A stretch of 16,029 nt of DNA from a virus. Position 1 is the first letter of the stretch. Each line of letters starts with the position of its first letter. Positions 1,311 through 16,029 of this stretch are shown piece after piece. The stretch lies in IMG/VR virus record IMGVR_UViG_3300007775_000008, positions 1 to 16,029 of that record. One strand, 5' to 3'. Below the pieces are notes generated by a model. The model made no database searches. It saw only the letters and a program-made list of their open reading frames with translations, and was not told the origin of the DNA. Position numbers and translations under genes: made by a program.

Positions 1311-1320
1311 GATCTGCTCC

Positions 1321-2826: not shown

Positions 2827-2948
2827 CGCGTGAGACGGTCCACTCCTGTTTCCCACTCGTGAGGACAATCGCTCGGCAATATCCACGGCCTGCCCTCCGC
2901 TTTGCATCGAAGGCAAAACACTATGCGACGGGTCCCGTCCTCCTGCAT
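2778..2948 (-). CDS. Small zinc-finger-like protein
   Basis: MQEDGTRRIVFCLRCKAEGRPWILPSDCPHEWETG... The ATG at 2948 lies 5 nt after the upstream stop (TAG 2954-2956). The track's longer form (to 3017) would overlap the upstream gene by 64 nt. Confidence 0.45.
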   Translation of the reverse strand: MQEDGTRRIVFCLRCKAEGRPWILPSDCPHEWETGVDRLTRWMGQAKAKILRSPSR

Positions 2949-2953
2949 TATCC

Positions 2954-3754
2954 CTAGGCCATATACTCTGGACGGTCTTGAAAAGGGCGCGGCGTTTCGC
3001 CTAACTCCTTCCCGCACTTCTCACACTTTGCCGCATGTTGGGGGTTTGAATTGCCACACCCTAAACATGTCCAGCCTCCAATAGGGTGATAGGTTGGTTC
3101 TTTGCTTTGTTCTTGGTCATAGGGATTTTTTAAAATAGGCATGGCTGTTTGCTGGTATGTTCTATCCTTTGGCAAGAATGGCATATTAGGATCGGCCTCT
3201 TCAAGCCCCAAATCCCGCTTTACCTGCGACACAATATCTCGGTGAATAGTCACGGCTAGACTTGCCTTTTCCTGGTCAAGTTCGTTTGTCGCCTGCTTTA
3301 TGGCGGTAGTGACGATCTCGCCGCGTGCAATGCCTACGTTTATCTTTTCGTGAATGTCGGGGGCGGTCGCTTCATGGGCGTAGAGCAGGGCGGCATGTAA
3401 AGCCGTCACGATGATGAAGCCATAAGTCATCCATTGCCCGATGTCGCCCGCTTCGATCTGTCCGCTGGATAAGATAACTTCGGCGGCCACCATGCCAAGA
3501 GTGCCAATGAATGCCACAATAAAACCAATGGCTGAGCTTGCATATTGACCTGTACTCTCGGACGTGAACACAAATGCCAAAGCCCAACACATCGCCGCAA
3601 TGTCAAACATGACAAGTCCCCACATGCGATTTATGAGACTATCCGGGAAGATGCGGGCAAGTGCGGAGTAGGTGAGGGACATTAGCAGCGCCAGGACTGC
3701 GATCCCGAACACTGCGAAGATATATTTACTTGCTGTTTGCAAAACTTTTTTCAT
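2954..3754 (-). CDS. Integral membrane protein (about 4 TM helices) with a C-terminal zinc ribbon
   Basis: The ATG at 3754 overlaps the upstream TGA (ATGA) and is preceded by AAGGA 7 nt upstream. The track start at 3772 is a TTG. The N-terminal half has hydrophobic helices and the C-terminus reads GGWTCLGCGNSNPQHAAKCEKCGKELG. Confidence 0.7.
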   Translation of the reverse strand: MKKVLQTASKYIFAVFGIAVLALLMSLTYSALARIFPDSLINRMWGLVMFDIAAMCWALAFVFTSESTGQYASSAIGFIVAFIGTLGMVAAEVILSSGQIEAGDIGQWMTYGFIIVTALHAALLYAHEATAPDIHEKINVGIARGEIVTTAIKQATNELDQEKASLAVTIHRDIVSQVKRDLGLEEADPNMPFLPKDRTYQQTAMPILKNPYDQEQSKEPTYHPIGGWTCLGCGNSNPQHAAKCEKCGKELGETPRPFQDRPEYMA

Positions 3755-4128
3755 GGGGTTATCCTTTCGCAATAGTGCGAATTTATCCAGCCTGTGAAAT
3801 TTTCAAACTGGACTTTTACCCAAGCGCCTGAAGACGGATCGGGTAAGAGAATCAATTGATCTCCCGGCTTTAGCCAGGTGATTACAATCCCTGCCATGCC
3901 TGGAGCGTCTCGCATGTACAAAGACTCCGCAGCGGTCACAACGCAAGTGCTCGGCGCTGGGGTGGTGCTTGCGGTCCCTGTGGGTGCAATCGAATTGATA
4001 GGGGAGGGGAGAGCTTGCTCAGTGGGAGAAACATCAACTGCATTTCGATCGATCGAATCCAGGAGCGATCCGCTGCAAGCCAAAGAAGACAGGGCGAGAA
4101 AGACCGCGATTAGTAATATCCTATTCAT
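3751..4128 (-). CDS. Lipoprotein with a bacterial SH3 (SH3b) domain
   Basis: MNRILLIAVFLALSSLAC is a signal peptide with a lipobox Cys. The C-terminus, LYMRDAPGMAGIVITWLKPGDQLILLPDPSSGAWVKVQFENFTGWINSHY, is SH3b-like. The ATG at 4128 lies 4 nt after the upstream TGA, so the longer track start is unlikely. Confidence 0.7.
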   Translation of the reverse strand: MNRILLIAVFLALSSLACSGSLLDSIDRNAVDVSPTEQALPSPINSIAPTGTASTTPAPSTCVVTAAESLYMRDAPGMAGIVITWLKPGDQLILLPDPSSGAWVKVQFENFTGWINSHYCERITP

Positions 4129-4132
4129 AATG

Positions 4133-4489
4133 TCACCCTGTAATTTCACGCGGGTAGCTTGTTCCACCAGGCGAATGGAACACTCCGCCAATCGCAGCTA
4201 TTTTATGGCTTGCCGATGAAACTGCCTCCAACATAAATTGATTCGCGATCGCTTTGACTTTTCCATCTTTTTCAGTTTCACTATCCCAAGTTGTTAAGAT
4301 GGCTATATCTTGCAGTAAGTCCAACGCATCCTTTTTGGCCCCAATCTTTTCGAGATAAGCTGCTAATGCCTCGAAAGCCGTATCCTTAATCGCGCTCAAA
4401 AATTCTTGAGAAAACACTGGCTCTTCAAATGCTGGACCTGCAATGTCAATTTCCCTAGCTTTCCGATCAACATCATTTTTCTTTTTCAT
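4133..4489 (-). CDS. Hypothetical protein (118 aa)
   Basis: It has a strong RBS (AGGAGTAAATC-ATG) and is the first gene after a regulatory intergenic region. I recognise no motif. Confidence 0.65.
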   Translation of the reverse strand: MKKKNDVDRKAREIDIAGPAFEEPVFSQEFLSAIKDTAFEALAAYLEKIGAKKDALDLLQDIAILTTWDSETEKDGKVKAIANQFMLEAVSSASHKIAAIGGVFHSPGGTSYPREITG

Positions 4490-4521
4490 GATTTACTCCT
4501 ACCTGTTACCAGGCTGATTTA

Positions 4522-4530
4522 TGCTAAAAT
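4522..4530 (+). promoter_or_regulatory. Extended -10 promoter element on the plus strand (TGCTAAAAT)
   Basis: TGn-TAAAAT lies at 4522-4530. The -35 is poor (CCTGTT at a 17-bp spacing). Confidence 0.35.
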
Positions 4531-4536
4531 TCTTAT

Positions 4537-4598
4537 GGATGTTTTGACCTGCCCACTCAGGTCAGACACTAGGCTGCCTCGCTAGGGGCAGCTTTTTT
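4537..4598 (+). ncRNA. Candidate ~60-nt plus-strand small RNA, antisense to the leader of the 4489 operon
   Basis: Hairpin 1 is TGACCTG-cccact-CAGGTCA (4545-4564). Hairpin 2 is GCTGCCTC-gcta-GGGGCAGC (4573-4592) followed by TTTTTTGTTTT. There is no plus-strand CDS here. Confidence 0.4.
4573..4598 (+). terminator. Plus-strand intrinsic terminator
   Basis: An 8-bp GC-rich stem (one G-T pair) with a 4-nt loop is followed by T6. On the minus strand it has no U-tract. Confidence 0.6.
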
Positions 4599-4699
4599 GT
4601 TTTCTTTTTCTTGCCCCTGTCCGTATCATCAATACCCAGGCTAAGAACCAGAGCGCACGATGAACGGTTATTCAGTTGTTAATGTGCGGGGTCTTTTCT

Positions 4700-4769
4700 T
4701 TGGTAATGAGTAAAAAGTAAAAATAATACGCCTTGCGGCGGCTCTTACTCTTTACATTGGTAAAGAGTA
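4700..4769. promoter_or_regulatory. Operator-like repeats TTGGTAA(T/A)GAGTA, one embedded in a 10-bp perfect palindrome
   Basis: TTGGTAATGAGTA lies at 4700-4712 and TTGGTAAAGAGTA at 4757-4769. TACTCTTTAC-attg-GTAAAGAGTA spans 4746-4769. The repeats sit between the terminator and the next operon. Confidence 0.45.
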
Positions 4770-4771
4770 TA

Positions 4772-4809
4772 CCAAAATAAAAAAACCCCGTCAAGCTAAA
4801 ACGGGGTTT
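4772..4809 (-). terminator. Minus-strand intrinsic terminator after the excisionase-like gene
   Basis: Stem 4783-4791/4801-4809 (AAACCCCGT/ACGGGGTTT) has a 9-nt loop. On the minus strand it is followed by TTTTTTTATTTTGG. Confidence 0.8.
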
Positions 4810-4828
4810 ACTTCTCGTCTTTTTGCAT

Positions 4829-5083
4829 CTATTGATCTGCCTTTCGGCGGGGATCGTTCTTTTCCATGTCTTTAGTTCGTTTGAGATATTCAGCCACCGA
4901 TTTTTTAGACACAAGCCATGCACGGCCAAACTTTACTCCATCAAGTGTTTTGTTTCGCAGCATCATTGGGATTGTCTTGACGTGAAAGCCTAGCTTTTTG
5001 GCGGCATCTTTTGTTGAGATGAATTCGCTTAAATCTGGCATATTATTGCTTCTTGCTTGTTTTGTAGGTGAAATATTTATCAT
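4829..5083 (-). CDS. Excisionase-family / MerR-like HTH DNA-binding protein (candidate Xis or RDF)
   Basis: ISTKDAAKKLGFHVKTIPMMLRNKTLDGVKFGRAWLVSKKSVAEYL matches the excisionase-type HTH pattern. The ATG at 5083 is preceded by GGAGA-TAAAC, and the recombinase TAA stop lies within that RBS region. Confidence 0.65.
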   Translation of the reverse strand: MINISPTKQARSNNMPDLSEFISTKDAAKKLGFHVKTIPMMLRNKTLDGVKFGRAWLVSKKSVAEYLKRTKDMEKNDPRRKADQ

Positions 5084-5085
5084 GT

Positions 5086-6708
5086 TTATCTCCATTCGAC
5101 CATGATAGATTTTTCACCACGTATTATCTGTGTGCCCCCACGGGGAGAGGCTACGTTACGTGAGTTATCAGATCCATTCTGAAACAGATCTATCATGGGG
5201 TATGTAAAAAATATTCTTGCTTTATTGTATCCGAGATCGACTCTTGAAACAAATTGCATAAGCCAGGCTTTTACATCTCTCACGTTTCCAGACTCTTGCA
5301 GATCTTCGAATTGATCGCGCCAGGCGATTATCATCAATCGGATTGCTTCCGGAGTGATCACTGTTTGAGCCGCTGTGAGCTGAAGACGTAAACGATCGAT
5401 CTCCGCTCTTGCTTGCATCTTTTCTGCCTCCCGTTCTTTTAGCCTATCCTGGGCAGAGGGAGAGTCTGTCTTTTCGATGGTCCTAAGCAGTCTCTGAATC
5501 GCAATGTCGAGATCATCCAGCTTTCGGTTTTCGGCGGTGATCTGCCTTTCAATTTCTGTTGTTGAATCAAGTTGTTTTTTCGTTTCGTCGATAACCTCCA
5601 TAAGATATTCAGGTGTAAGAACATGATCAAGCACGGCTTTTATAATTTGTGTCTCTGCATTGATCGCCCCAACTCTTCTTGACTTACAAGCAGCGGAACC
5701 ATGGCGATCCTTCTTTCCGCAAATATAATGTTTCCATACTTTATTTTTATTGCCGTTGCTATGGGTCATCATGTTCCCGCATTCAATGCAGTAAGTGAAA
5801 CCCGATAGAGCTGTAGGATTTCCCACTCGCCGCGGATGATTTAGGTTTCCTTTTTTTCCATAGCGCGGATGTGCCTTTCTAAGTTTTTGCACGGCTTCCC
5901 AGAGCTCCCAGGTGATAAGCGGCTCATGATGGTCCGTGATTTCAAGATCTCCGCTCTTGCCAATGCCCAAATAGGATTTATTCTTAAAAAAAGTTGTCCA
6001 TGTGTTGACACTTGTATACAACATCCCTTTTGTAGCTTTGGTGATTTCCCGATAAGATTTTCCCTCAGCTCTCAATTGCCAGGCTATTTTTACATACCCA
6101 CTCAAAACTGGATCAGGCTCCCATCTGCTAACCATGCGCGGTATACCATCGCGCTTTTCACCAATGTTCACTTTGACGGCGACATATCCGCGGGGAGGTA
6201 TGCCAGGCGAAAAACCCTTGCTCACAAGTGACTTTAAACCACGCTTCACATCACGGGAAGTTTGACGGCGCTTTTCTTCATTGGCCAGGCTGATAACTGT
6301 TTCTACAATACGCGCTGAAAAATCATCCACAGGGATCACGTCTGTCACGGAGTGGACCATTACCCCACGCTGCTGCAATGTTGCTTTGTAAAATACGGTG
6401 TCATTATAGTCACGCGAGAAGCGGGCAAAGTTCCAAATCAAGATAGCCTGGGGGCGGATTGTTTCGTCTTCGCTTTGTTCAATCATTCCCATAAATTCAT
6501 CACGTCCAGTTGTACTTCCTCCTGATCGGGCAACATCTCGAAAAACTTTGACCAGGGAAAGGTTATACCGTTTGCAATATGCAATGATTTCGCTTTCCTG
6601 TTGTCCTATGCTCTGCTCCTGAGCTGGTCCGCCGCTGTCACGCAAGTATGCCCACACGCGAGCACCTGCAGTCAAGCTCGGCGGGGGAGGGGAGTATTGA
6701 TCGCTCAT
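5086..6708 (-). CDS. Large serine recombinase (resolvase catalytic domain, recombinase domain, zinc ribbon and coiled coil)
   Basis: 540 aa. The N-terminus WAYLRDSGGPAQEQSIGQQESEI carries a YxRxS-type nucleophile motif. CIECGNMMTHSNGNKNKVWKHYICGKKDRHGSAAC is a zinc ribbon, followed by the coiled coil RKLDDLDIAIQRLLRTIE...EIDRLRLQL. RBS is AAGGATAAATT-ATG. Confidence 0.9.
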   Translation of the reverse strand: MSDQYSPPPPSLTAGARVWAYLRDSGGPAQEQSIGQQESEIIAYCKRYNLSLVKVFRDVARSGGSTTGRDEFMGMIEQSEDETIRPQAILIWNFARFSRDYNDTVFYKATLQQRGVMVHSVTDVIPVDDFSARIVETVISLANEEKRRQTSRDVKRGLKSLVSKGFSPGIPPRGYVAVKVNIGEKRDGIPRMVSRWEPDPVLSGYVKIAWQLRAEGKSYREITKATKGMLYTSVNTWTTFFKNKSYLGIGKSGDLEITDHHEPLITWELWEAVQKLRKAHPRYGKKGNLNHPRRVGNPTALSGFTYCIECGNMMTHSNGNKNKVWKHYICGKKDRHGSAACKSRRVGAINAETQIIKAVLDHVLTPEYLMEVIDETKKQLDSTTEIERQITAENRKLDDLDIAIQRLLRTIEKTDSPSAQDRLKEREAEKMQARAEIDRLRLQLTAAQTVITPEAIRLMIIAWRDQFEDLQESGNVRDVKAWLMQFVSRVDLGYNKARIFFTYPMIDLFQNGSDNSRNVASPRGGTQIIRGEKSIMVEWR

Positions 6709-6944
6709 AATTTATCCTTGCTGTTGTTAGGAATTATTTTTCCGTTTTCGTTTTTCAAAATTCCACGCTCTAAAAGATCATTAATGACAGTCTCAAAATT
6801 TATTACAAGCAGAGACAATGCCGCATCTTGCGCCGTTTTCAGATCGGCATATTGATTGCCGCTGATTTCTTCGATAATCATATCAGGCGCTTTCCGGGGC
6901 ATTGTCTCTGCTTTTATCCTTAGATCTTGTGTTACTTTTTTCAA
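6705..6944 (-). CDS. Hypothetical small protein, translationally coupled to the serine recombinase (ATGA overlap)
   Basis: 79-aa ORF. The start at 6944 is a TTG with a distant GGAG, and an alternative ATG lies at 6902. Confidence 0.5.
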   Translation of the reverse strand: MKKVTQDLRIKAETMPRKAPDMIIEEISGNQYADLKTAQDAALSLLVINFETVINDLLERGILKNENGKIIPNNSKDKL

Positions 6945-6968
6945 AACCCGAAGCTACTCCATAGGCCC

Positions 6969-7025
6969 CTGCTACATGTTACGTGTTTCGCGATTAAAAC
7001 GCGAAACATGTAAACATGTATGCAG
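6969..7025. promoter_or_regulatory. ~57-bp imperfect dyad, candidate attP for the serine recombinase or an operator/terminator
   Basis: The core stem is 12 bp (6981-6992/7000-7011, loop ATTAAAA). The arms extend imperfectly (CTGCTACATGTT vs the reverse complement of AAACATGTATGCAG). There are three ACATGT palindromes. An outer clamp AAAACCCG(6943-6950)...CGGGTTTT(7033-7040) encloses the region. Confidence 0.4.
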
Positions 7026-7050
7026 TATGCAACGGGTTTTTAATTAAATG

Positions 7051-9411
7051 CTAGCCTTGTGACGGGAACAGGCGCATTGTTGAGGGACCGCGCTTGCCTT
7101 TGATCTCTTTTTCAACCAAGATCCCATCCTTTAGTAATTGGTCAAGGATCATTTCTAATTGGTTTCGCTTTACTCCTGTTTGCATGTGAAGATCAATAGC
7201 TATCTCCCTGCGAGAATTTCTCCGAGATGTCTTCAACCGCGCAAGTATCCTTATGGCGAGTTCGTCCTCTTCACTTTCGAGAGGTGTACTCGCATCTTCG
7301 ATCATTCTATGAAGACTTGCTCGGTACCCTTCAGTAATCTCTTGGGCTCTAAACCAGTGGGCATCTTTCACCACAAGCGGATTACCTTTTGCCATCCTTG
7401 CCCAGTCTGATGTTGCCAAAAGAATAGCAATTTTGATTGCCTTTTCATGGAAACGGCCATAAGACGATTCAAGCTTTTCAGGTATCCTCTTTTTCTCAAC
7501 GAGTGAATACATGGCTTTATGATATTTATCCCACCGGCGTTTCACTCCTGGTGCCAGAGTAGCCTCAATAGCGGGTGGAGCTGGTGTTGAACCAAGAGCG
7601 TTTTCCTTTGGTGTTTCCAGCTTTTCAAACATCAGATGATTTATATGCTTTACTAGGGCTGGAGGAATAGGGAATGGATCCGGAAAGAACACACGCACCG
7701 GTGCAGTGTCAGGTGTAACAAGTAAGAAACGGGCAAATAGACCACCACTCCAATATTCAGGAGTTTTCAAATGCTGTCTCAATGCTGCAGGAGTGGTAGG
7801 TCCGCAAATCGTCAAGTAAATATTTCGGACCGTCTCACGACCGCGCGCAATGGTGGAAATTTTTATCTTCGATTCGCATTCATAAAATCTCAAGATGATG
7901 TTTTTGAGTTCTGCCAAATGTTTTTGTTGGAACCATGACAACATGCTAGCAGCTTCATCCATCCACCAGGCCCGCTGCGCTGCAAAAAGACGTTCATTCT
8001 GCCACTCTTCCTTTTCTTCTTGGTTCCAATTTTGGTAATTGTCTTGCGGCCTATTTGACAACTCAGTAATCAAACTTTGCGGTGTTACACCATCGGGCAA
8101 AAGCAGGTGAGATAATCCGGCCATCTTCATAACTTCCAATGCGGTTTTGTAGCCTGTTGTCTTTGTGTATAGTGTGGAAGGTGCTGAGAGCAGGATATAA
8201 AGATTGGGGTAGATGCTTTTCGATGCACCCATGTTCACAAATACGCGCCGTGCAATGGCCGTAGACAAAATAGCTAGTGCGTAGGTTTGATGAAATAGAT
8301 GTGGTGTCATTGGGGCATCTTTGATCGCAAAGGAGATGTAATCATCGATGAATTTACCTGCCTTTTTCCCTAGCTTTATCTCAGCGTCGCTCATCTGAGC
8401 AAAGCTAGGAAGTTCTGGCATGGCAGATGAGATTGCATCGTCTGGATGCTCATTCTCATCGTCAACATCACTTGAGATGATTGGCGCGGCCTTTCCTTGT
8501 TTCTTGACCATCTTCTCGAATGCGTGAGGGTTGGAAGGTGTCCGCGTTTGCGAATAGGCACTCTTGATTGTTTCAATTGCCTCCCCTTCCTTTTTCCCTA
8601 AGTTGGACCATACCGGCAAAAGAAAAGACTCTGCTTCACTTTGGGAATATCCGCAACCGTTCAAATCACAAGCGGCAATGAATAGCCTGTTATTTCGCGT
8701 ATGTGGTCCCGCGCCAAATTCAAGAAAGTCCTTGGTTTGGCTTGACACTCTTCCACGCTCATTACTGGAAAGATTTGCAGGAGTTGGATCTGTCGATTTT
8801 TTGTCATTCTTGAAGTCATCCCACAATTGACAAATGCGGATGATCTTTTCACCATCGTATTCGAGCGCGGACCTATCAGCATTGTGCAATTCATAAAGAG
8901 CGCCTCCCGGGTGCGTTGAAGGCGGCACAACGCCTTGATTGCCATTCCCCAGGAATTCCAAATGGACATCATGCCATTTTTTATTTTTGGGGATCGATCC
9001 TTTGATCTGTAATACAAGCTTGCCACGATCGGGCGCATCTGCTCTTTTTATAATTGGAGCATTGGCCAATCCGGGGAAGTATTCAAAGAATTCCTGCAGG
9101 TGATCGTCAATGTCAAGCAAACATAGTCCGCTTGATTTCTTTCCACACAATAGGCCAACATTCCCACCTTTTTTTACGTGAGGCAGAATATCCTTGAATG
9201 CGATCGGCTTGACCTGCCAAGCCTTGTCAATCGGTTGTTTCCCAGGGGAGTTTACCTTTGCGTTCCATGCAGCCACTCGGACAAAGTTGGCACCCTGTTG
9301 TGCAAACCATTCAAGGGATGTATAATCGTTTTGGATGTTCTGACGCTTCGCTAGCGTCCCTTGTGCCCTGGCTTCTGCTGGGGCACTTTGTTTTTCATTC
9401 TTCGTTGTCAT
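7051..9411 (-). CDS. Bifunctional primase-polymerase (Prim-Pol N-terminus, PriCT-like middle) fused to a DUF3987-like helicase/ATPase domain
   Basis: 786 aa. GKQPIDKAW...GGNVGLLCGKKSSGLCLLDIDDH and LEFLGNGNQGVVPPSTHPGGALY are Prim-Pol signatures. HTRNNRLFIAACDLNGCGYSQSEAESFL is PriCT-like. The C-terminal ~400 aa resemble DUF3987. RBS is GAAAGGAAAACGAAG-ATG. Confidence 0.85.
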   Translation of the reverse strand: MTTKNEKQSAPAEARAQGTLAKRQNIQNDYTSLEWFAQQGANFVRVAAWNAKVNSPGKQPIDKAWQVKPIAFKDILPHVKKGGNVGLLCGKKSSGLCLLDIDDHLQEFFEYFPGLANAPIIKRADAPDRGKLVLQIKGSIPKNKKWHDVHLEFLGNGNQGVVPPSTHPGGALYELHNADRSALEYDGEKIIRICQLWDDFKNDKKSTDPTPANLSSNERGRVSSQTKDFLEFGAGPHTRNNRLFIAACDLNGCGYSQSEAESFLLPVWSNLGKKEGEAIETIKSAYSQTRTPSNPHAFEKMVKKQGKAAPIISSDVDDENEHPDDAISSAMPELPSFAQMSDAEIKLGKKAGKFIDDYISFAIKDAPMTPHLFHQTYALAILSTAIARRVFVNMGASKSIYPNLYILLSAPSTLYTKTTGYKTALEVMKMAGLSHLLLPDGVTPQSLITELSNRPQDNYQNWNQEEKEEWQNERLFAAQRAWWMDEAASMLSWFQQKHLAELKNIILRFYECESKIKISTIARGRETVRNIYLTICGPTTPAALRQHLKTPEYWSGGLFARFLLVTPDTAPVRVFFPDPFPIPPALVKHINHLMFEKLETPKENALGSTPAPPAIEATLAPGVKRRWDKYHKAMYSLVEKKRIPEKLESSYGRFHEKAIKIAILLATSDWARMAKGNPLVVKDAHWFRAQEITEGYRASLHRMIEDASTPLESEEDELAIRILARLKTSRRNSRREIAIDLHMQTGVKRNQLEMILDQLLKDGILVEKEIKGKRGPSTMRLFPSQG

Positions 9412-9425
9412 CTTCGTTTTCCTTT

Positions 9426-9650
9426 CTAAACTGTATCGGTATTTGATCCGATACAGTTCGAAGCCGTACCGGTTATAGCCTTATTGATTGCAGGGTCTTC
9501 AGTTTCTATCGCTTTTTGAAGTGCAGCTTTCTTTTCTCTATAAGCATCCATCCAGGCGGATTCCTGCTTTATATCTCCGCCGTAATATGGATGTGGACAA
9601 AGCTTATCGTGGGGATATCCTGCTTGAGATCCACACATACAGAGGTCCAT
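9426..9650 (-). CDS. Small Cys/His-rich hypothetical protein (74 aa)
   Basis: The ATG at 9650 is preceded by AGGAG with an 8-nt spacer. The track start at 9668 is a TTG that lies over the RBS. Translation: MDLCMCGSQAGYPHDKLCPHPYYGG... Confidence 0.6.
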   Translation of the reverse strand: MDLCMCGSQAGYPHDKLCPHPYYGGDIKQESAWMDAYREKKAALQKAIETEDPAINKAITGTASNCIGSNTDTV

Positions 9651-9713
9651 AAGTTTTTCTCCTTTCAAATAAATTTCACGCCCCTTCTACCTATGTGTGA
9701 ACAGGTTATTTGC

Positions 9714-9759
9714 TTCACTCTGATAGCTTGGCGCGGCGTAGATTCACTCTATAAAGCTT
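9714..9759. repeat. Two direct repeats TTCACTCT-(GATA/ATAAA)-GCTT in an intergenic region
   Basis: Copies lie at 9714-9729 and 9743-9759. A possible minus-strand promoter TTCACA-N17-TGAAAT (9701-9673) lies just downstream. Confidence 0.4.
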
Positions 9760-9772
9760 CCAATAAAATCCA

Positions 9773-9988
9773 TTAGGAATAATTAGGGCATGTTTCATTC
9801 CGGCATACCTGTTTGCCTTCCGTAGTCAGGTGCAGCTCACAATGGCACTCTGAGCAGACCTGGATAACAACAATGTCCAGGATCTTGCCTGTCAAGATCT
9901 GCATTGCCTGGTCCCAGGCAGCACGCTTTTCAGGTGGTAACGGCACGTGCCTGATTTCAATATCAGCATCCAATTCTCTTTTTGGCAT
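9773..9988 (-). CDS. Small zinc-ribbon protein (71 aa)
   Basis: The ATG at 9988 is preceded by AGGAAAGGAATTGTT. The C-terminus reads CSECHCELHLTTEGKQVCRNETCPNYS (CxxC...CxxxxC). Confidence 0.6.
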   Translation of the reverse strand: MPKRELDADIEIRHVPLPPEKRAAWDQAMQILTGKILDIVVIQVCSECHCELHLTTEGKQVCRNETCPNYS

Positions 9989-10112
9989 AACAATTCCTTT
10001 CCTAAATATTTTGTGATAATGTGGCGGCGCGACCACCACTGTATAAGATCATCGTTGATTCCAGTAGTAAAAAAGAGCGTTGGGAGAGCGATCAATCAAT
10101 ACTGGATTTTTC

Positions 10113-10160
10113 CTGTACATTTTCTGTACATTTTCTGTAAAAATATTTTTATATCGATAT
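10113..10160. repeat. Iteron-like 11-bp tandem repeat plus AT-rich palindromes (candidate replication origin or promoter/operator)
   Basis: CTGTACATTTT occurs twice (10113-10134) with a degenerate third copy CTGTAAAAAT. It is followed by the palindromes AAAATATTTT (10140-10149) and ATATCGATAT (10151-10160). Confidence 0.45.
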
Positions 10161-10243
10161 CAGATCTCGACCCGTTTTTCTGGAAAAGTTGTGAAGCGCC
10201 GAGACGCTGCGCCCTCGGGCGCCTGGCCAGATCGAGCGCGAAT

Positions 10244-10277
10244 CCCCGAAGACCCCACCCCCCCTATCCCCTTCCCC
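10244..10277 (-). other. G-quadruplex motif on the minus (coding-sense) strand / i-motif on the plus strand
   Basis: Plus-strand C-tracts lie at 10244-10247, 10253-10256, 10258-10264, 10268-10271 and 10274-10277. On the minus strand this reads GGGGAAGGGGATAGGGGGGGTGGGGTCTTCGGGG. Confidence 0.6.
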
Positions 10278-10335
10278 ACACGCGAGATCTATACCGTGCC
10301 CGGACCTGTCCGCACGCACGCACTCCCGCACGGAA

Positions 10336-10392
10336 TTATTGGCGGTTAAATTCGTTTTCAAAACATCTTCAAAACATCTTGACCGCCAATAA
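10336..10392. repeat. 11-bp perfect stem enclosing a tandem 11-mer repeat
   Basis: TTATTGGCGGT (10336-10346) pairs with ACCGCCAATAA (10382-10392). The 35-nt loop carries TTCAAAACATC twice (10357-10378). Confidence 0.6.
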
Positions 10393-10464
10393 CTCAACAG
10401 TCCCAAACGTGTATAGGCTTCCCTATCAGATGCTATTTTCTGCAGTGATCGGGCTGCTTCTGTT

Positions 10465-10506
10465 GTCCGCGGTGTACTGTTAAAACTGTCACAGTACACC
10501 GCGGAC
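10465..10506. repeat. 16-bp perfect inverted repeat (hairpin or cruciform)
   Basis: GTCCGCGGTGTACTGT (10465-10480), loop taaaactgtc, then ACAGTACACCGCGGAC (10491-10506). There is no flanking U-tract on either strand. Confidence 0.7.
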
Positions 10507-10519
10507 TAGCAAGCCCCAC

Positions 10520-10587
10520 GCCCCAGGCAAATCACACAGGAAGGGCGGAGAAGGAGAAAGACCTCCCCTACCGTGTTTTCCTGGGGC
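10520..10587. repeat. Long-range 8-bp clamp around a purine-rich segment
   Basis: GCCCCAGG (10520-10527) pairs with CCTGGGGC (10580-10587). The interior reads GGAAGGGCGGAGAAGGAGAAAGACCTCCCC. Confidence 0.4.
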
Positions 10588-10660
10588 AGCATGGCCAAGG
10601 CACATAACGCCCAATAAAAGAGCATTTTGGGCTTCATGTTTCTACTGAATAAGAATTAAG

Positions 10661-11548
10661 TTATAAAGGTTCCATGGCGCGCGCCGCCGCCCCGCTATCA
10701 CGCTCCCGCTCTCGTTCTCGCTCCGCATCTTCCCATGCTTCAGCCCGCCTGACAGCGGACCTATAAGCCAAGGTCAAAGCCTTGTACCTGGGCGCGTATT
10801 TCGATCTCAGGCATTTTTCACAGATGACAAAATCTGAATCGATGTAAATAGATTCTTCTATGTATGCACCTTGCAGATCTTCAACGTCTGAAACAACTTC
10901 AAGATATTCGGCCTCTTCAGCCGCATAAGCAAATGTTCCAGCAGCGGACCAGTTGAAAGAAGTTCCACAAATTGCACATTCAGTAATTTCAAAATCCACA
11001 ATCTTTTCAAAACGCTGGGGGAAGTGGTTGATCTTGTTTGATATCTCACCGCTGCTTTTTGAGAGGTAATCCAGTATCCAATCACCCGCAATTTCAAAAG
11101 CGTGTTTTTGCAGATCGTCCATTAGATCGGTTTTGTAGCTGATCGCGTAAGATTGATTGCCCGTTTTTGGATCGGTGTAGATATGGCCAATCGTCTTCCA
11201 TTCATCAGTTGGATTAATTCTGAGTTTGGTTCTCTTTTCGTTGTTTGGTATTACCTGCCTTTTTGGATCGGCTTTCCGTTTCTGTAAAAACTTGAGTACC
11301 ATTCCAAATGTCCATGAATAGCGGCGCTTTAGCCAGGTGATTACATCGCCGGTTTCCTGCTCCATGCCTGGACGATTGATCTCATACGTTTGACGGCGGA
11401 TGTCCACAGTCAAGCCGTATGTATTTGTGCTGCGCCATATTTCGGAGTTTTTCGCGTCCACTTCAAACGCTTCGCCCGCTTCCTGCATGAGAAGCTCGAT
11501 ACGATGTTTTTCCTTCAATGCACGGAGTTCGTCTTTAGTCATCTTCAT
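10661..11548 (-). CDS. Hypothetical protein (295 aa) with two CxxC pairs and an acidic/ERERER tail, coupled to the upstream ATPase
   Basis: The ATG at 11548 is preceded by AGGTGA-CAGCG and overlaps the upstream gene by 14 nt. Motifs are CAICGTSFNW...ICEKCLRSK and a C-terminal AEAWEDAERERERERD. Confidence 0.65.
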   Translation of the reverse strand: MKMTKDELRALKEKHRIELLMQEAGEAFEVDAKNSEIWRSTNTYGLTVDIRRQTYEINRPGMEQETGDVITWLKRRYSWTFGMVLKFLQKRKADPKRQVIPNNEKRTKLRINPTDEWKTIGHIYTDPKTGNQSYAISYKTDLMDDLQKHAFEIAGDWILDYLSKSSGEISNKINHFPQRFEKIVDFEITECAICGTSFNWSAAGTFAYAAEEAEYLEVVSDVEDLQGAYIEESIYIDSDFVICEKCLRSKYAPRYKALTLAYRSAVRRAEAWEDAERERERERDSGAAARAMEPL

Positions 11549-12851
11549 CGCTGTCACCTGCCAATTCATATATCTTTGCACCCTTCGCAGCGCTCACGAA
11601 GATGATCTCTCGTGTTCCATGAAGAATTTCAATCCCTTCCCTAATATTTGCATCACTCAGGCTTTTATCAATGCGCTTTGCTTCTGCCCTCAATTGCGTG
11701 TGATTCAATTTATCGTTCTGTTTGAGGGCTTCAATGATCGCATCATGTGCCCGGGCAGTTTTGCTTCGATAGGCAATCCGCCAAAAACGCGCCTCTGTCA
11801 GATCCAAGTTTTCATCTTGGGTGTATGAAAAGTTTGCACTGATGTTGGGAGCATCAGGACCACGGACGGCCACTGGCTTGATCGTGACCTGGTCTTTATC
11901 AGCCATATCTCGTTCAACAAGGAACGCTCCGTCAACCCCAGCAAGGATGCTTCCCGATCCCCTTAGATTATCTTCAGGTGCCCCACCCGCTTTACCAATG
12001 CCCTTTTTGGCATGATGTACCAGGATGATCGCAACATTACACGCTTCTGATATCTGACGAATGGCTCCCATGATTTGAGAAGCTAGCGGACTGTTTTCAT
12101 CCACGGGGCCAAACACCTGCCCAAGATGATCTATAACAAGCACCCCAATATCTCCAAGCCCTTTTATGCGTTCGATCATTGCAGCCACATTTTCAGGCCT
12201 TGAAAAATCCGGCCATGGAGAGGGCATGCTGTAGGCTTGAAACTGGCCGTGGTCAATATCAATCTCCAGCGCCCTGGCGAATGCTTTCATGCGTCTTTTC
12301 AAAACTTGGGTACCATTTTCCAGATCGATCCAAACAACACGCTCAGACGCTACTTCAATGCCATCGCTTCCCTTGGGGGTGGTCATCCAATATAAGCCGC
12401 TCACAATGTGATGACACATATCCATAATGACCAATGTCTTTTTATGCTTCGGTTTTCCAAAGAAAACCACCACTGAAGGACGTGGAAGGAAATATCTCAC
12501 GACCCATGAAATAGGCGGGATCTCCTCCACCATCACATCTGCCAGGTCGAAGGCTTCCCAACCCTTTGACGTTTCCAGTGTTGCCAGGTCCGCATTAGGA
12601 TTTGCGAGATCGATCATGGGGGAAAGTATCAGATCCAAGCCACGTGCCGTCAGCTCTGCCTGTAATCTGCTCTTACGCTTTGACTTGTCCCTCCCCTCCG
12701 ATAGGACACTCATCACCACATCAAGCAATGGACCCTGTAAGCGGGATAAATCCGCCGCTGTTGGATCGTTTGCAGTGGAATCAGTCAATCTCCGTAGTAA
12801 ATGCGCCGCGTAGTTAAGTACGTGCTGGGGTTGTTGCGTTGTGTCTGCCAT
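11535..12851 (-). CDS. RecA-fold ATPase, RepA/AAA_25-like (replicative helicase-like)
   Basis: 438 aa. The Walker A-like motif is FFGKPKHKKT (12435-12458). VLVIDHLGQ is Walker B-like, followed by AIILVHHAKKG...LRGSGSILAGVDGAFLVER, typical of the AAA_25/RepA pattern. No clear SD precedes the ATG at 12851. Confidence 0.75.
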   Translation of the reverse strand: MADTTQQPQHVLNYAAHLLRRLTDSTANDPTAADLSRLQGPLLDVVMSVLSEGRDKSKRKSRLQAELTARGLDLILSPMIDLANPNADLATLETSKGWEAFDLADVMVEEIPPISWVVRYFLPRPSVVVFFGKPKHKKTLVIMDMCHHIVSGLYWMTTPKGSDGIEVASERVVWIDLENGTQVLKRRMKAFARALEIDIDHGQFQAYSMPSPWPDFSRPENVAAMIERIKGLGDIGVLVIDHLGQVFGPVDENSPLASQIMGAIRQISEACNVAIILVHHAKKGIGKAGGAPEDNLRGSGSILAGVDGAFLVERDMADKDQVTIKPVAVRGPDAPNISANFSYTQDENLDLTEARFWRIAYRSKTARAHDAIIEALKQNDKLNHTQLRAEAKRIDKSLSDANIREGIEILHGTREIIFVSAAKGAKIYELAGDSDEDD

Positions 12852-12889
12852 GTTTTCATTTTTTCAATAATCAACGGGTCAAACGTTTT

Positions 12890-13462
12890 TCACCTTTTGT
12901 TGAGTTTTCTTCGTAAGTCAGTCGGTGTGATTTCTTTTTTCGTTGTGATCTCGTTTGGAAAAAAATCCATCAACGCTGGAAGATCCGTAGCAATCTTTGA
13001 AATAAGATTGGCGCGTTTGGTTTGTACGTAAGTAAGGGTGTGATGATCGCCGCTTTTCAAGTCGGCTCGATACGCGCTGTATTTCTCTTTGAGCTCATCT
13101 GTCTTATTGGCAGCATCCAAAAACAGGGCGTAAATCTCATCCTGAATTTGCAGAGCATCTTTATTGATCTCCGCCATTCTGGAAAGGCGAATAGTATTTA
13201 ACTCTTTCGCACGTTCCTGTTCATCTTTCTGAATCTCAAAGTCCAGGTCTTTGATTCCCGTTTCGGTCCCTTCAATGCGAACTCGAAGATTTACAATCTC
13301 ATCAGTCAACTTGGAAGTTGACCGCCCATCACGTATTGCCTGGGATTGATCGGAGAGTTTCACTTTGAGAGATGCTCTCTGCTCATCAAGCAGTTTCACG
13401 AGCTCGGAGCGCTGCTCCTTGGTTGTAGCTAGTTTTTTTTCAAGTTTTTCAAGTGTGTTCAT
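12890..13462 (-). CDS. Coiled-coil hypothetical protein (190 aa)
   Basis: RBS is AAGAGGAAAC-ATG. The sequence is heptad-rich and charged (EKLEKKLATTKEQRSELVKLLDEQRASLKVKL...). Confidence 0.65.
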   Translation of the reverse strand: MNTLEKLEKKLATTKEQRSELVKLLDEQRASLKVKLSDQSQAIRDGRSTSKLTDEIVNLRVRIEGTETGIKDLDFEIQKDEQERAKELNTIRLSRMAEINKDALQIQDEIYALFLDAANKTDELKEKYSAYRADLKSGDHHTLTYVQTKRANLISKIATDLPALMDFFPNEITTKKEITPTDLRRKLNKR

Positions 13463-13471
13463 GGTTTCCTC

Positions 13472-13666
13472 TTATTCATCCAAGCGAATGAATGTTTTGT
13501 TTCGATTTTCGTCGCGTTCTTTAATTGAAACTTTTTTCCCCAGGCTCTCGTTCATTAGCTTTACGACCGCATCCTGAATCGATTGCTTTTCTTCTTCTGT
13601 CAACTTTTCAAATGCGGCCGCATCTTCATCGTCAACGGGAATGTATATGGATATTCTTTTTTTCAT
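13472..13666 (-). CDS. Small protein (64 aa), possibly ribbon-helix-helix-like
   Basis: The ATG at 13666 is preceded by AAAGGAG-TTTGAAA. The track start at 13672 is a TTG. The N-terminus KRISIYIPVDDEDAAAFEKL resembles an RHH strand-helix. Confidence 0.55.
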   Translation of the reverse strand: MKKRISIYIPVDDEDAAAFEKLTEEEKQSIQDAVVKLMNESLGKKVSIKERDENRNKTFIRLDE

Positions 13667-13668
13667 TT

Positions 13669-14166
13669 TCAAACTCCTTTAGGTGGAAAATATTGAATAC
13701 TTAACGCTGCATTTAACAGCGCCATGATTCCAGTGTCATCAAACTTTGCTAAGGCTACATTCTCAATAATCTTTTCAAGTTGATCCGCTATACTTTGCGC
13801 TTCAATCTCAATAGGCTTTTTAGGATGCTGTAGCCTTTCATCATCACTTACAGTCAAATAAGGTCCACGCTCGAGAATAATTTTTTCAATTATTTCCATT
13901 GTTCCGCTTTCAAATTCTGGAAGTTTATGCCCCGCTAAATAATGGCCACATTCATGTAGGGCAGTTAGGTAAAGATCGTATGTAGAAAGTTTCGGATTAA
14001 TATCGATGCAAATCACGCCTTTACCATCCCGGTAGATTTCTCCAGCGGTGTTCTGTGTTCTTGGCTCACGCCAATTGACCTTCACAGTCATTTGAATAAA
14101 GTTAATGCACATCAAACGAATCAGCCTTTTAACTTCTTCGATGTCAACTTGGTGATTTTCGTCCAT
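13669..14166 (-). CDS. HExxH zinc metallopeptidase-like protein (SprT/ImmA-IrrE-like zincin)
   Basis: 165 aa. GVICIDINPKLSTYDLYLTALHECGHYLAGH carries the HExxH motif in the context seen in SprT/DUF45/ImmA-type zincins. Confidence 0.6.
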   Translation of the reverse strand: MDENHQVDIEEVKRLIRLMCINFIQMTVKVNWREPRTQNTAGEIYRDGKGVICIDINPKLSTYDLYLTALHECGHYLAGHKLPEFESGTMEIIEKIILERGPYLTVSDDERLQHPKKPIEIEAQSIADQLEKIIENVALAKFDDTGIMALLNAALSIQYFPPKGV

Positions 14167-14180
14167 CTGATTTATTCATC

Positions 14181-14372
14181 CTATGTGGAAGATTCCGAGA
14201 TCTGCTCAGTGGGAAAAACATCTTGCGAAATATCAATCAATCCCTCTTGGGCAAGTCGTTCTCGAATCAATAATGCAGCTTGATCCCCAGGCTCTCGTTT
14301 CTCTCTTTCAGAGAGAGAAATCAAAGCACTCTTCTCTTGGTCACTCAAAATAATTGTTAGACGTGTTGACAT
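14181..14372 (-). CDS. Ribbon-helix-helix (CopG/Arc-like) DNA-binding protein
   Basis: 63 aa. TRLTIILSDQEKSALISLSEREKREPGDQAALLIRERL fits an RHH. RBS is GGAGTGAAAACAA-ATG. Confidence 0.65.
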   Translation of the reverse strand: MSTRLTIILSDQEKSALISLSEREKREPGDQAALLIRERLAQEGLIDISQDVFPTEQISESST

Positions 14373-14401
14373 TTGTTTTCACTCCATTAACAAAAAAATG
14401 A

Positions 14402-14435
14402 CGGCTATTCATGCCGTCATTTTTGCATATTATTT
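14402..14435 (-). terminator. Bidirectional intrinsic terminator
   Basis: A7, then ATGACGGC-tattcat-GCCGTCAT (14408-14430), then T5. On the minus strand the hairpin is followed by TTTTTTTG. Confidence 0.7.
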
Positions 14436-14475
14436 TTTGTTAGGCTACTTCAATGAACCTATCGATAACCTATTT

Positions 14476-15069
14476 CTACTTTCTTTCTTTATCGTAAGGG
14501 ATACGAGCATCTGGAAAGCTTCTTCTTAATTTAGAAATTTTGTTATGTACTGTTGTGACTTTCCAAAAGTCTAACCCTTTACCTTTAGTCCAATCTGAAA
14601 TTTCCTTTGCAGTTTTATTTTCACACCATAATTCAACAGCTTTACGTTCCTGGTCCGAAATACTTACTGGTAAATGGTCACAAGGACTCCAAATTTCTCC
14701 CATCGTTTTTACTGTGTCACCTTCCTGCAGTACCTTGGCATATGGCCCCCCCCAAATATAATCCTTATCTATTACACTTTTCCAAAACAACCAAAACAAA
14801 ACGATATTTAGTCTATTCACTTTGTCTGTTTTGTCTCTCAATACCACTTCTATTTTGCATCCATAACCTGTATGTTCAAAACTAATATAAGCACCAGAGA
14901 AGCTTATCGAATAATGCTCATCTTCTCTCCACTCATTAAGATGCGTCTTTATTTTTAGTTTTGTAAGATGTCTGTCGAACCATGCTGAAAGATAGCTTGG
15001 ACTTTGACCCGATTTTGCAATCCAAGATTCGGGAAGTTCATCAAGTTCTTTTTCCAATAATTCATTCAT
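14476..15069 (-). CDS. Putative transcription regulator with a C-terminal LuxR/sigma-70 region-4-like HTH
   Basis: The ATG at 15069 is preceded by GGAGA-TAAGAGAC. The C-terminus reads SDQERKAVELWCENKTAKEISDW...TVHNKISKLRR. The gene is visibly AT-richer than its neighbours. Confidence 0.6.
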   Translation of the reverse strand: MNELLEKELDELPESWIAKSGQSPSYLSAWFDRHLTKLKIKTHLNEWREDEHYSISFSGAYISFEHTGYGCKIEVVLRDKTDKVNRLNIVLFWLFWKSVIDKDYIWGGPYAKVLQEGDTVKTMGEIWSPCDHLPVSISDQERKAVELWCENKTAKEISDWTKGKGLDFWKVTTVHNKISKLRRSFPDARIPYDKERK

Positions 15070-15084
15070 GTCTCTTATCTCCAA

Positions 15085-15114
15085 TTGACTAGCCCCGCTC
15101 GGAGATGCTATAAT
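15085..15114 (+). promoter_or_regulatory. Near-consensus sigma-70 promoter on the plus strand
   Basis: TTGACT (15085-15090), an 18-nt spacer, then TATAAT (15109-15114). It lies back-to-back with the RBS of the minus-strand regulator gene. Confidence 0.6.
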
Positions 15115-15120
15115 CAGTCC

Positions 15121-15185
15121 GAGCATGAGCCCGTGATCTCATGCACTCCCATCTCCGCCCTGGACGAACAGGACGGAGATTTTTT
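15121..15185 (+). ncRNA. Candidate ~65-nt plus-strand small/antisense RNA
   Basis: It is fired from the promoter above. Hairpin 1 is GCATGAG-cccgtgat-CTCATGC (15123-15144). Hairpin 2 is the terminator. Only a 3-codon ORF is present. Confidence 0.5.
15151..15185 (+). terminator. Plus-strand intrinsic terminator
   Basis: ATCTCCGCCCTG-gacgaa-CAGGACGGAGAT (a 12-bp stem with one G-T pair) is followed by TTTTT. On the minus strand the same hairpin lacks a U-tract. Confidence 0.65.
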
Positions 15186-15211
15186 ATAGGGGAGATATTA
15201 TTTTACAAGAT

Positions 15212-15448
15212 TTAATTCACCTCGCTTAGCTTGTTTGCCAATCCTTGGGCCAACATTGCGAGTTTCATTCTAAACGTAAGCTTGTTACCCAGCAATGCCT
15301 GATATGAGCATGAACTCCAAATTGTGACGGGCTTCCCATAATGTGGGGATACTTTGCCATTGCAAAAGTGATCGTCTGTTGAAGTTTCTCTACCTTTGAT
15401 TTGAGTCCTACACATCAAGCAGACAGTTCCGACCTTCTTTTTTTCCAT
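15212..15448 (-). CDS. Small Cys-rich hypothetical protein (78 aa), coupled to the tape-measure stop
   Basis: GGAGG-CGTGTAGG-ATG, with the ATG 1 nt after the tape-measure TAG. It contains CLMC and HFC motifs. Confidence 0.6.
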   Translation of the reverse strand: MEKKKVGTVCLMCRTQIKGRETSTDDHFCNGKVSPHYGKPVTIWSSCSYQALLGNKLTFRMKLAMLAQGLANKLSEVN

Positions 15449-15449
15449 C

Positions 15450-16029
15450 CTACACGCCTCCTAAATTGAAAATCAACTCGTTGGCCAGCATATCAACCCG
15501 CTGATCGATCTCTCCACGAATTTGACGTAGTGTAAGACCGCTATTGAAATACTGGTTGATCGTCTGCTGCTGTGAATTGGACTGGTTCGTGATCGGTTGT
15601 ACCAGCGAACGCGCCATATCTTCAGGAGAGACGCGCTGCAAACCCATCTGAAAGCCCTGTGCGGTGAACATGCCCAGCTTCATAGCTTCTACCGACGGCG
15701 AACCAATCCCCAAAGATTTCTTGATCGCGCTTAGTACCGTCTCACCTACTTTTGTAGCAACCGTCAATAGTCCGGGGATGCCAAGCAACATGCCGTTCGC
15801 CAATCCCTGCAGGATGTATTTACCAACCAGCCCCCAATCGATGCGAGAGAATGTATCGCGGATATAGGTCACAAGTTTGCCGAGCGCATCACGCATGAAT
15901 GTCATGAACTTATTCCAGGCGTCCTTGATGCCGAAAATCTTCTCGAATACTTTGTTGAAACGTTCCACGAAGGCATCCCAGGCTTCCTGCAGGTATTCCG
16001 TGGCCGCATCCGTATCACCTTTCAGGAAA
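15450..16029 (-). CDS. Phage tail tape measure protein, C-terminal part (same gene as 1..1310 across the junction; about 588 aa in total)
   Basis: Track ORF 15450..15968 is in frame with the ORF from 1310 (1310 minus 62 equals 1248, a multiple of 3). The track's initial 'M' is an internal GTG valine. The sequence contains the LGIGSPSVEAMKLGMFTAQGF motif common in tape measure C-terminal regions. Stop is TAG at 15450-15452. Confidence 0.8.
   Translation of the reverse strand, partial: FLKGDTDAATEYLQEAWDAFVERFNKVFEKIFGIKDAWNKFMTFMRDALGKLVTYIRDTFSRIDWGLVGKYILQGLANGMLLGIPGLLTVATKVGETVLSAIKKSLGIGSPSVEAMKLGMFTAQGFQMGLQRVSPEDMARSLVQPITNQSNSQQQTINQYFNSGLTLRQIRGEIDQRVDMLANELIFNLGGV
15907..16029. repeat. 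Right copy of the exact 123-bp terminal direct repeat
   Basis: Identical to 1-123. It lies inside the tape-measure reading frame. Confidence 0.95.

Follow-up and report, generated by a model that had tools for sequence, protein, structure and literature searches.

The window analysed here, the whole of a 16,029-nucleotide (nt) stretch of DNA (positions 1 to 16,029 of IMG/VR virus record IMGVR_UViG_3300007775_000008), carries near its end a promoter-like sequence followed by two hairpins, opposite the leader of a gene for a helix-turn-helix (HTH) regulator. The locus raises the question of whether a small RNA antisense to that leader is encoded there and, if so, what it does to the regulator. 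The answer favoured here, which we regard as moderately probable, is a switch built of convergent promoters in which a cis-antisense small RNA represses a regulator of the GerE/LuxR type. Its core, a promoter-driven, terminated two-hairpin RNA antisense to the regulator leader, had been proposed in a preliminary description of the sequence and is now supported by 16 relatives.

A predicted promoter and two hairpins opposite the regulator leader

The features needed for the first part of the argument are the following.

15085-15090, plus strand: -35 hexamer TTGACT of the small-RNA promoter, from a promoter scan, adjoining the Shine-Dalgarno (SD) sequence of the regulator on the other strand
15106-15114, plus strand: extended -10 TGcTATAAT of the small-RNA promoter, from the promoter scan, with its TG at 15106-15107
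15121-15186, plus strand: predicted small RNA of ~65 nt, with its start placed at 15121/15122, 7-8 nt past the -10 box, and its 3' end within the T-run
15123-15144, plus strand: hairpin 1, 7 base pairs (bp), from the fold, stem GCATGAG/CTCATGC, loop CCCGTGAT
15151-15185, plus strand: hairpin 2 (15151-15180) and T6 (15180-15185), from the fold and an inverted-repeat search, a predicted intrinsic terminator on the plus strand only
14476-15069, minus strand: regulator gene, 197 amino acids (aa), with a predicted N-terminal alpha/beta domain and a C-terminal GerE/LuxR-type HTH

The promoter TTGACT-N18-TATAAT (15085-15114, plus strand) has 11/12 consensus matches in the promoter scan of the window and had been described as the best sigma-70 match there, a rank that it shares with an equal-best site on the plus strand at 14735-14762 (TTGGCA-N16-TATAAT, 11/12). 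The latter sits within the regulator coding region and also points against the genes. It was confirmed that the small-RNA promoter points against all genes, those with homology support being all on the minus strand. The window contains 26 promoter-like sites and its shuffled versions 24.3 +/- 4.6; because the two counts are equal, the promoter match taken alone is weak and no better than chance.

Folding of 15121-15190 gives exactly two hairpins joined by a C-rich spacer, at the positions originally described, with a minimum free energy of -27.6 kcal/mol (z = -4.3; 0/200 shuffles as stable). The second hairpin had been called a 12-bp GC-rich stem followed by T5; its position holds, and it is made of 7+4 bp with one C.A mismatch, that is 11 pairs, followed by T6. 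A search of the window against Rfam gave no match at gathering score; by E-value, 14900-15500 returned sR52 alone at E = 6.9, judged a chance match, and nothing was found at E <= 1 in five relatives. No relation of the small RNA to a curated Rfam family is thus seen, the plasmid countertranscript RNA (ctRNA) families and any phage antisense RNA families in Rfam included. Taken by itself the window proves little; the relatives are decisive for the small RNA.

Relatives of the module and its conservation

No close homologue of the regulator was returned by a word-indexed protein search, which gave the query only, and an exhaustive HMMER search yielded 25 distant relatives; a scan of viral contigs with the AAA_25 protein alone found nothing. 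The contigs of 11 protein-found relatives were looked up, DNA being on record for 10, and 8/10 of these relatives, found by protein alone, carry the small-RNA unit upstream of the regulator gene on the opposite strand (loci L004, L006, L007, L163, L139/L164, L170, L069/L171 and L082/L172). Further copies came from DNA-pattern scans for hairpin 1 in genomes, viral contigs and metagenomes: three on Chloroflexota contigs of 18-72 kb from metagenome-assembled genomes (MAGs; L033, L048, L069), two on IMG/VR contigs of 15.9 and 17.1 kb (L082, L083) and five on new metagenome contigs (L099, L103, L139, L154, L155). Most matches of these scans are due to chance, the genome scan having produced 71 against ~87 expected (18 fixed bases, 596 Gb); a match was retained only where it was accompanied by the -10 box, by a terminator and by the expected neighbouring genes. 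The total for the window family is 16 distinct copies.

All copies share one gene order: an integrase or tape-measure-like gene, the antisense small RNA, the regulator homologue and AAA_25. Identity is 59-72% for AAA_25 and 24-45% for the regulator, and the DNA of L082 and L083 has no blastn similarity to the window. Because the regulators are so divergent and these two loci lack blastn similarity, the unit is far better conserved than the sequences around it.

The preliminary description had asked after promoter and hairpins in relatives, and the 16 elements have all retained the -10 box, its spacing from hairpin 1, the two hairpins and a T-run on the same strand. The TAnAAT box lies 5-8 nt upstream of hairpin 1 in 16/16 copies. 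In most copies the -35 is TTGCNN, separated by N16/17 from TACAAT, compared with TTGACT and N18 in the window; L099, the copy closest to the window in layout, has TTCAAG-N18-TAAAAT. Every copy (16/16) folds into two hairpins with a T-run. The hairpin-1 stem GCATGAG/CTCATGC is invariant (16/16), with one extra matched A:U pair inserted in L163, and its loop of 6-8 nt follows the pattern CC-N2-4-AT with the centres GUG, GAA, GGA, UCC, GC and UA. Hairpin 2 differs in sequence in almost every copy, yet always consists of 9-13 GC-rich pairs. The T-run that follows it is on the plus (small-RNA) strand alone in all 16 copies, in line with the earlier proposal that the structure terminates in the plus orientation only.

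Covariation across homologous elements had been suggested as a check, and the terminator stem covaries. When helix 2 was tested on a covariance-model alignment, compensatory changes on both sides were found in 7/10 pairs and 89.6% of the cells were paired, values that 0/500 column shuffles equalled; with the partner slid by 1-3 columns, at most ~60% of all cells were paired against 94% in the true register. MAFFT with RNAalifold on the small RNAs recovered hairpin 1 only, the terminator being misaligned; when the sense leaders were aligned by MAFFT without guidance, RNAalifold recovered both helices with five compensatory pairs. On the small-RNA strand helix 2 contains 13 G.U cells against 6 A.C cells, an excess that is weak support for this strand; the T-run offers strong support. 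The covariance model of the unit matched 16 distinct loci with E from 1e-9 to 1e-24, the match in the window being at 15122-15186 (61 bits, E = 6e-18), and two of the 16 were outside its seed (L170 at 76.7 bits, L163 at 34.8 bits). By these comparisons of sequence the feature is real and conserved.

Other explanations of the unit were considered and rejected. A small peptide gene within the small RNA would have to use the only ATG present, which encodes Met-Ser-Pro-stop. An attP core or a copy of a host-gene 3' end does not agree with L171, where the module fills the 132 nt from the integrase stop to the regulator start, nor with the integrated relative L048, where the junction with a tRNA-Glu gene is ~5 kb from the module. 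A bidirectional terminator serving the upstream genes is refuted by the minus strand, which has no U-run after the hairpin.

Hairpin 1 and its possible readers

The invariance of the hairpin-1 stem while the neighbouring proteins are so divergent could mean that this hairpin is mainly a protein-binding site, either an operator in double-stranded DNA (a 7-bp inverted repeat lying between the two promoters and recognised by the GerE-type regulator of the element or by another HTH protein) or an RNA handle. In both cases pairing of the RNAs would matter only secondarily or not at all, and the short transcript would be a by-product or decoy. Inverted heptamers are typical binding sites of GerE/NarL-type regulators, and the putative recognition helix (TVHNxISKLR) is the most conserved segment of the regulator family. 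The same stem and the same layout of a -10 box plus 7 nt also occur before another gene in L167, which agrees with a protein reader. However, the spacing of the half-sites varies (6, 7 and 8 nt, and 15 nt in L167), and a rigid DNA-binding dimer is unlikely because it would not tolerate this; the stem of L163 gains a matched pair, and additional half-sites in other parts of the elements are about as frequent as chance predicts. Neither form of protein site explains the -10 box at a fixed distance or the covarying, strand-specific terminator, and as a whole this explanation is judged unlikely, if worth keeping in view; its RNA-handle version is compatible with the antisense switch.

The L167 hairpin itself lies at L167:440-520 on the minus strand of that locus, where it opposes the beginning of a gene with an SH3_3 domain; the sequence there is a -10 box TAGAAT, 7 nt, GGCATGAG-N15-CTCATGCC and a T-rich tail. 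It thus repeats the hairpin-1 stem and the promoter spacing before another gene, in a locus whose regulator has no small RNA upstream.

An identical stem with a varying loop centre is also the pattern expected of specificity groups. The small RNA might accordingly act in trans, on other transcripts of the element, of the host or of co-resident elements, and so determine immunity or incompatibility as P4 CI and P1/P7 c4 do, or it might be a replication primer or gate like that of ColE1, and the element is circular and encodes its own PrimPol and AAA_25 helicase. We consider this very improbable. In the 15.9-kb element no second site matches the small RNA by at least 11 nt, matches of 9-10 nt being at or near chance; there is no Rfam match, so no kinship to curated antisense or countertranscript families is seen; and the RNA would have its own promoter and terminator and would not be cut from a longer transcript. 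A 3' end fixed by a terminator does not fit the primer role.

The probable facing promoter and the regulator leader

On the opposite strand, the antisense switch requires a transcript that the small RNA can meet, and the features concerned are these.

15200-15205, minus strand: candidate -10 TAAAAT for transcription of the regulator gene, directed towards the small-RNA promoter; TAnAAT in relatives
15070-15194, minus strand: predicted 5' leader of the regulator mRNA (~124 nt), exactly complementary to the small RNA over its first ~70 nt
15146-15194, minus strand: predicted leader helix H3, arms GGGAG/CTCCC (15190-15194 with 15146-15150), enclosing hairpin 2' and the A-run
15097-15124, minus strand: predicted leader helix H4, arms GCTCGGA (15097-15103) and TCCGAGC (15118-15124), flanking the -10 box of the small RNA
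15067-15082, minus strand: regulator SD sequence GGAGAT (15082-15077) and ATG (15069-15067)

A face-to-face promoter on the minus strand had been placed at 15208-15181 (TTGTAA-N16-TAAAAA). Such a promoter probably exists, with its conserved -10 box TAAAAT at 15205-15200 instead. The facing TAnAAT box is found in 15/16 copies on the sense strand, 13-20 nt past the T-run, and the inner edges of the two facing -10 boxes are 75-91 bp apart across the copies (about 85 bp in the window); predicted leaders are 117-140 nt long in the family. H3 joins the stretch that separates this box from the A-run to the spacer between the two hairpins, and its cognate arms pair better than non-cognate arms (-9.5 against -7.6 kcal/mol; permutation p < 0.0002, 16 copies). 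Because the 5' arm of H3, which lies beyond the 3' end of the small RNA, pairs cognately and the facing -10 box is present in nearly every copy, the sequences suggest that the sense RNA starts upstream of the small-RNA 3' end, so that the overlap of sense and antisense would be complete.

Two further pairings concern the part of the leader nearer to the gene. The duplex of H4 was also found to be cognate-specific (p < 0.0002), and a leader segment CAUCUCCGA (minus strand, 15107 to 15099) can pair with the SD region and is therefore called the anti-SD (cognate against non-cognate duplexes, p = 0.02). In the window and in L099, H4 and the anti-SD:SD pairing are mutually exclusive. All copies have a strong GGAG-type SD sequence 6-10 nt upstream of the start codon. 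No attenuator was seen in the sense leader, the minus strand from 15121 to 15070 having no hairpin with a U-run.

These helices raise another explanation, in which the structured 5' untranslated region (H3/H2', H1', H4 and the anti-SD) acts alone on stability or translation of the regulator mRNA and the plus-strand promoter and terminator are coincidental mirror images. By complementarity all helices exist on both strands; H3, H4 and the anti-SD:SD pairing, which are partly outside the small RNA, pair cognate-specifically, and a small number of G.U pairs in H3 and in H4 can form on the sense strand only (L006, L099). A leader acting alone nevertheless gives no role to the TAnAAT box at its fixed distance of 5-8 nt in all 16 copies, has no U-run after H2' to match the plus-strand T-run of 16/16 copies, and does not agree with the excess of G.U over A.C cells on the plus strand of helix 2. 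It is held to be quite improbable as the whole explanation; the leader structure is probably the target of the small RNA, and both models may coexist.

The regulator and the region downstream

The product of the regulator gene has no Pfam match by itself. The profile of its family matches GerE (1fse, E = 8e-6), DesR (2e-4) and DevR (0.01), and Pfam GerE is matched by 6/24 regulator relatives. The AlphaFold model (predicted local distance difference test, pLDDT, 88) has a disordered linker between an N-terminal alpha/beta domain and a helical C-terminal domain with helices at 139-184. Foldseek gave no confident match for the whole model (RhlR E = 3e-3, template-modelling score 0.25), and a structure search with the N-terminal domain gave none either. 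The family profile thus agrees with the HTH regulator of the preliminary description, and its assignment as a GerE/LuxR-type HTH protein is supported by sequence comparison. The WGGPY motif, conserved in the regulator, is encoded by an eight-C run at 14746-14753 (G8 as read on the coding strand), and this homopolymer could be a hotspot of slippage or of assembly error.

Between the end of the regulator gene and the SD sequence of the next gene there is a further feature, detected by the inverted-repeat search.

14394-14424, no strand assigned: perfect 12-bp hairpin with A5/T7 flanks

The minus strand of 14373-14475 carries short direct repeats (AGGTTATCGATAGGTT; at 14430-14475), a -10-like TAATAT, this 12-bp hairpin and then the SD sequence of a 63-aa gene. 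Direct repeats and a hairpin with a T-run occur in the same place in most of 11 relatives examined, and the hairpin is nearly the same in the window, L004 and L170. The repeats may be binding sites of the regulator and the hairpin a leader terminator that gates the replication operon. Since a terminator-like hairpin follows it, the regulator gene appears to be a separate transcription unit ahead of the replication and recombination genes.

A proposed switch and the points against it

The sequence features, their conservation, the covariation and the strand of the terminator are observations; from these we infer that both RNAs are made, that the effect on the regulator is negative and which targets the regulator has. 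In the proposed antisense switch, a strong, probably constitutive sigma-70-type promoter inside the regulator leader would fire away from the regulator gene and produce a transcript made of hairpin 1, the C-rich spacer and the intrinsic terminator. It would be faced by a weak regulator promoter whose mRNA begins with ~70 nt complementary to the small RNA. At a first level, interference, polymerase at or from the small-RNA promoter, the -35 of which abuts the regulator SD sequence, would block or collide with the sense polymerase. At a second level, pairing, the two RNAs would make contact through the hairpin-1 loops and then zip into a duplex of ~65 bp, which would destroy the conserved 5' stem of the leader (H3 and H2'). 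The outcome would be decay of the mRNA, a shift of the balance between H4 and anti-SD:SD toward the form that hides the ribosome-binding site, or both. The regulator presumably governs the downstream genes for replication, integration and excision, and with the module in place the element would stay quiet as long as nothing boosts the sense promoter. Modelling has indicated that interference from convergent promoters together with a cis-antisense RNA leads to sharp or bistable switches (PMC4519249).

Several points weigh against this switch. The sigma-70-like promoter consensus is an assumption from general knowledge as far as Chloroflexota are concerned, and no conserved or recognisable -35 of the sense promoter was seen in the 16 copies. 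The preliminary description had placed the RNA opposite the regulator leader, which holds for about the first 70 nt of that leader; the ribosome-binding site is not reached, as the complementarity falls short of the start codon, by 53 nt in the window and by 48-64 nt in the relatives. Because of this distance the small RNA cannot block the ribosome-binding site directly, and with that site outside the duplex any effect must come from interference, duplex-dependent decay or refolding. A translational effect through refolding of the leader is weakly supported, the SD sequence being clearly sequestered in single-sequence folds of ~4/16 copies only. Additionally, L008 and L167 have no unit upstream of the regulator gene, where a different gene abuts it, and the copies found by pattern scan were preselected for hairpin 1 and so are no test of its conservation.

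The last of these points concerns the hairpin-1 stem, whose invariance is not explained by antisense pairing. Because pairing alone would permit compensatory change, something else reads the sequence of the stem, possibly an RNA-binding protein, unless overlapping constraints from both transcripts are responsible. A more speculative version, which we rate as rather unlikely, is that the stem is an RNA handle read by a conserved protein of the host or the element, that the loop centre sets 'immunity groups' and that the handle is reused elsewhere, as in L167. If true, co-resident Chloroflexota elements would tell self from non-self by means of one small RNA, and the module would be an RNA-protein immunity code and not a plain antisense repressor.

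The element and its host

The sequence is also public in another form: the window makes up nearly the whole of a contig of 16,047 bp that was assigned by binning to the Anaerolineales (Chloroflexota) MAG GCA_035266825.1. The ends of the window (1-123 and 15907-16029) overlap by 123 bp, and between two public assemblies (L001, L002) the sequence is circularly permuted, with an overlap of 141 bp (k-mer) at the termini. Given the permuted assemblies and the overlapping ends, the element is a circle or tandem array of 15,906 bp. Its genes with homology support, besides that of the regulator, are listed below.

1476-2531, minus strand: tyrosine integrase
4829-5095, minus strand: HTH_17 excisionase-like protein
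5086-6708, minus strand: serine integrase
7051-9411, minus strand: PrimPol-DUF3987 protein
11535-12851, minus strand: AAA_25 helicase
Minus strand: SprT-like protein
15212-15448, minus strand: 78-aa open reading frame
15450-16029 into ~1300, minus strand, wrapping the window ends: tape-measure-like protein, 588 aa

The element therefore encodes two kinds of integrase, tyrosine (1476-2531) and serine (5086-6708). SH3/amidase-like proteins are also encoded, and no capsid or terminase is recognisable. The homologue of the tape-measure-like protein in L172 (148-2370) has 740 aa and a Pfam PhageMin_Tail match. A tape measure without capsid or terminase is odd for a viral entry of IMG/VR and might indicate a satellite-like or otherwise unusual lifestyle; the element is integrative and self-replicating and not a complete phage. 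Searches of GenBank phages by BLAST, with the small-RNA region and with the whole window, found nothing similar.

ARAGORN found no tRNA or tmRNA in the window. In L048 (Anaerolineae MAG Nak57) a tRNA-Glu(CTC) gene (L048:5790-5863) directly adjoins the element, near its excisionase and tyrosine integrase genes; since this is the arrangement expected for an integrated copy, L048 is such a copy and places the family in Chloroflexota chromosomes. In the related element L008, the p306-like and DUF3854 genes are separated by a long tandem array (L008:4900-6300) with a unit of ~62 bp and, by eye, roughly 20 or more copies. An iteron-like origin is one possible reading of this array among others, and no similar array was found in the window.

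If the module does control the GerE-type regulator, it would be the point at which the element decides between quiescence and replication or excision. As a compact conserved candidate switch, made of two facing promoters, an RNA of ~65 nt and a structured leader, it is portable to a reporter without culture of the host, and its covariance model marks a family of integrative, self-replicating elements of roughly 11-17 kb in metagenomes. The invariant stem of hairpin 1 is in addition a puzzle that points to a reader of that sequence.

Known systems of similar layout

What is known of regulatory RNAs in mobile elements comes, to our knowledge, almost entirely from Proteobacteria and Firmicutes. 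Chloroflexota (Anaerolineae) are an abundant and barely cultured phylum, and a limited literature search, together with the lack of an Rfam match, turned up no description of such an RNA in them.

The preliminary description had likened the layout to P4 CI, P1/P7 c4 and plasmid antisense RNAs. P4 CI and P1/P7 c4 likewise belong to mobile elements and are small RNAs by which regulatory genes are controlled. They are processed from a longer transcript of the same operon and act on repeated target sites within it. The window RNA, in contrast, lies on the strand opposite to all genes, would have a dedicated promoter and terminator and a strictly cis-antisense target, and is accompanied by neither repeated target sites in the element nor an Rfam match, so that this likeness is abandoned. 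The plasmid antisense RNAs, with P22 sar, form the better comparison.

IS10 RNA-OUT/RNA-IN resembles the module in its face-to-face promoters a few tens of bp apart and in a stable stem-loop of ~70 nt that anneals to the target mRNA at its 5' end. RNA-OUT pairs with the extreme 5' end of RNA-IN, ribosome-binding site included, whereas in the window that site is outside the duplex.

Like the predicted window RNA, the plasmid countertranscripts (pMV158 RNAII, pT181 RNAI, pIP501 RNAIII, R1 CopA) have one or two hairpins, their own promoter and a rho-independent terminator and oppose the leader of a key gene on a circular element that replicates; the first contact is likely to be between loops in all of them. 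Unlike them, the window RNA has a target that is not a replication initiator, and no Rfam match; the invariance of its hairpin-1 stem across the family is atypical of countertranscripts. Attenuation of the pT181/pIP501 type differs as well, there being no attenuator terminator between the pairing region and the start codon in the window.

The prgQ/prgX region of pCF10 (Anti-Q/Qs) has face-to-face promoters and overlapping transcripts, one short and terminated and the other running into regulatory genes of a mobile element. The overlap of the prgQ and prgX transcripts is about 220 nt. In the window it would be about 65-75 nt, there is no peptide pheromone, and the short RNA would come from a dedicated and much stronger promoter.

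In phage P22, the sar RNA controls the antirepressor gene ant (PMC2629481). Both sar and the window RNA are short antisense RNAs (~69 nt for sar) of a temperate mobile element, with a promoter embedded in and opposing the unit of a regulatory gene and with a terminator of their own. They differ in that sar covers the ribosome-binding site of ant, whereas 48-64 nt separate the end of the window RNA from the start codon; they share no relation of sequence or structure, the host phylum of the window is Chloroflexota and the target is a GerE-type regulator. Liao et al. and Wu et al., both in 1987, are said to have described Psar as a promoter within the arc-ant operon (immI) that opposes Pant. By this analogy of layout, P22 sar, pCF10 prgQ/prgX and the plasmid countertranscripts are the closest known systems, and the RNA described here would represent a family of small RNAs that is new and uncurated and works by a mechanism of a familiar kind.

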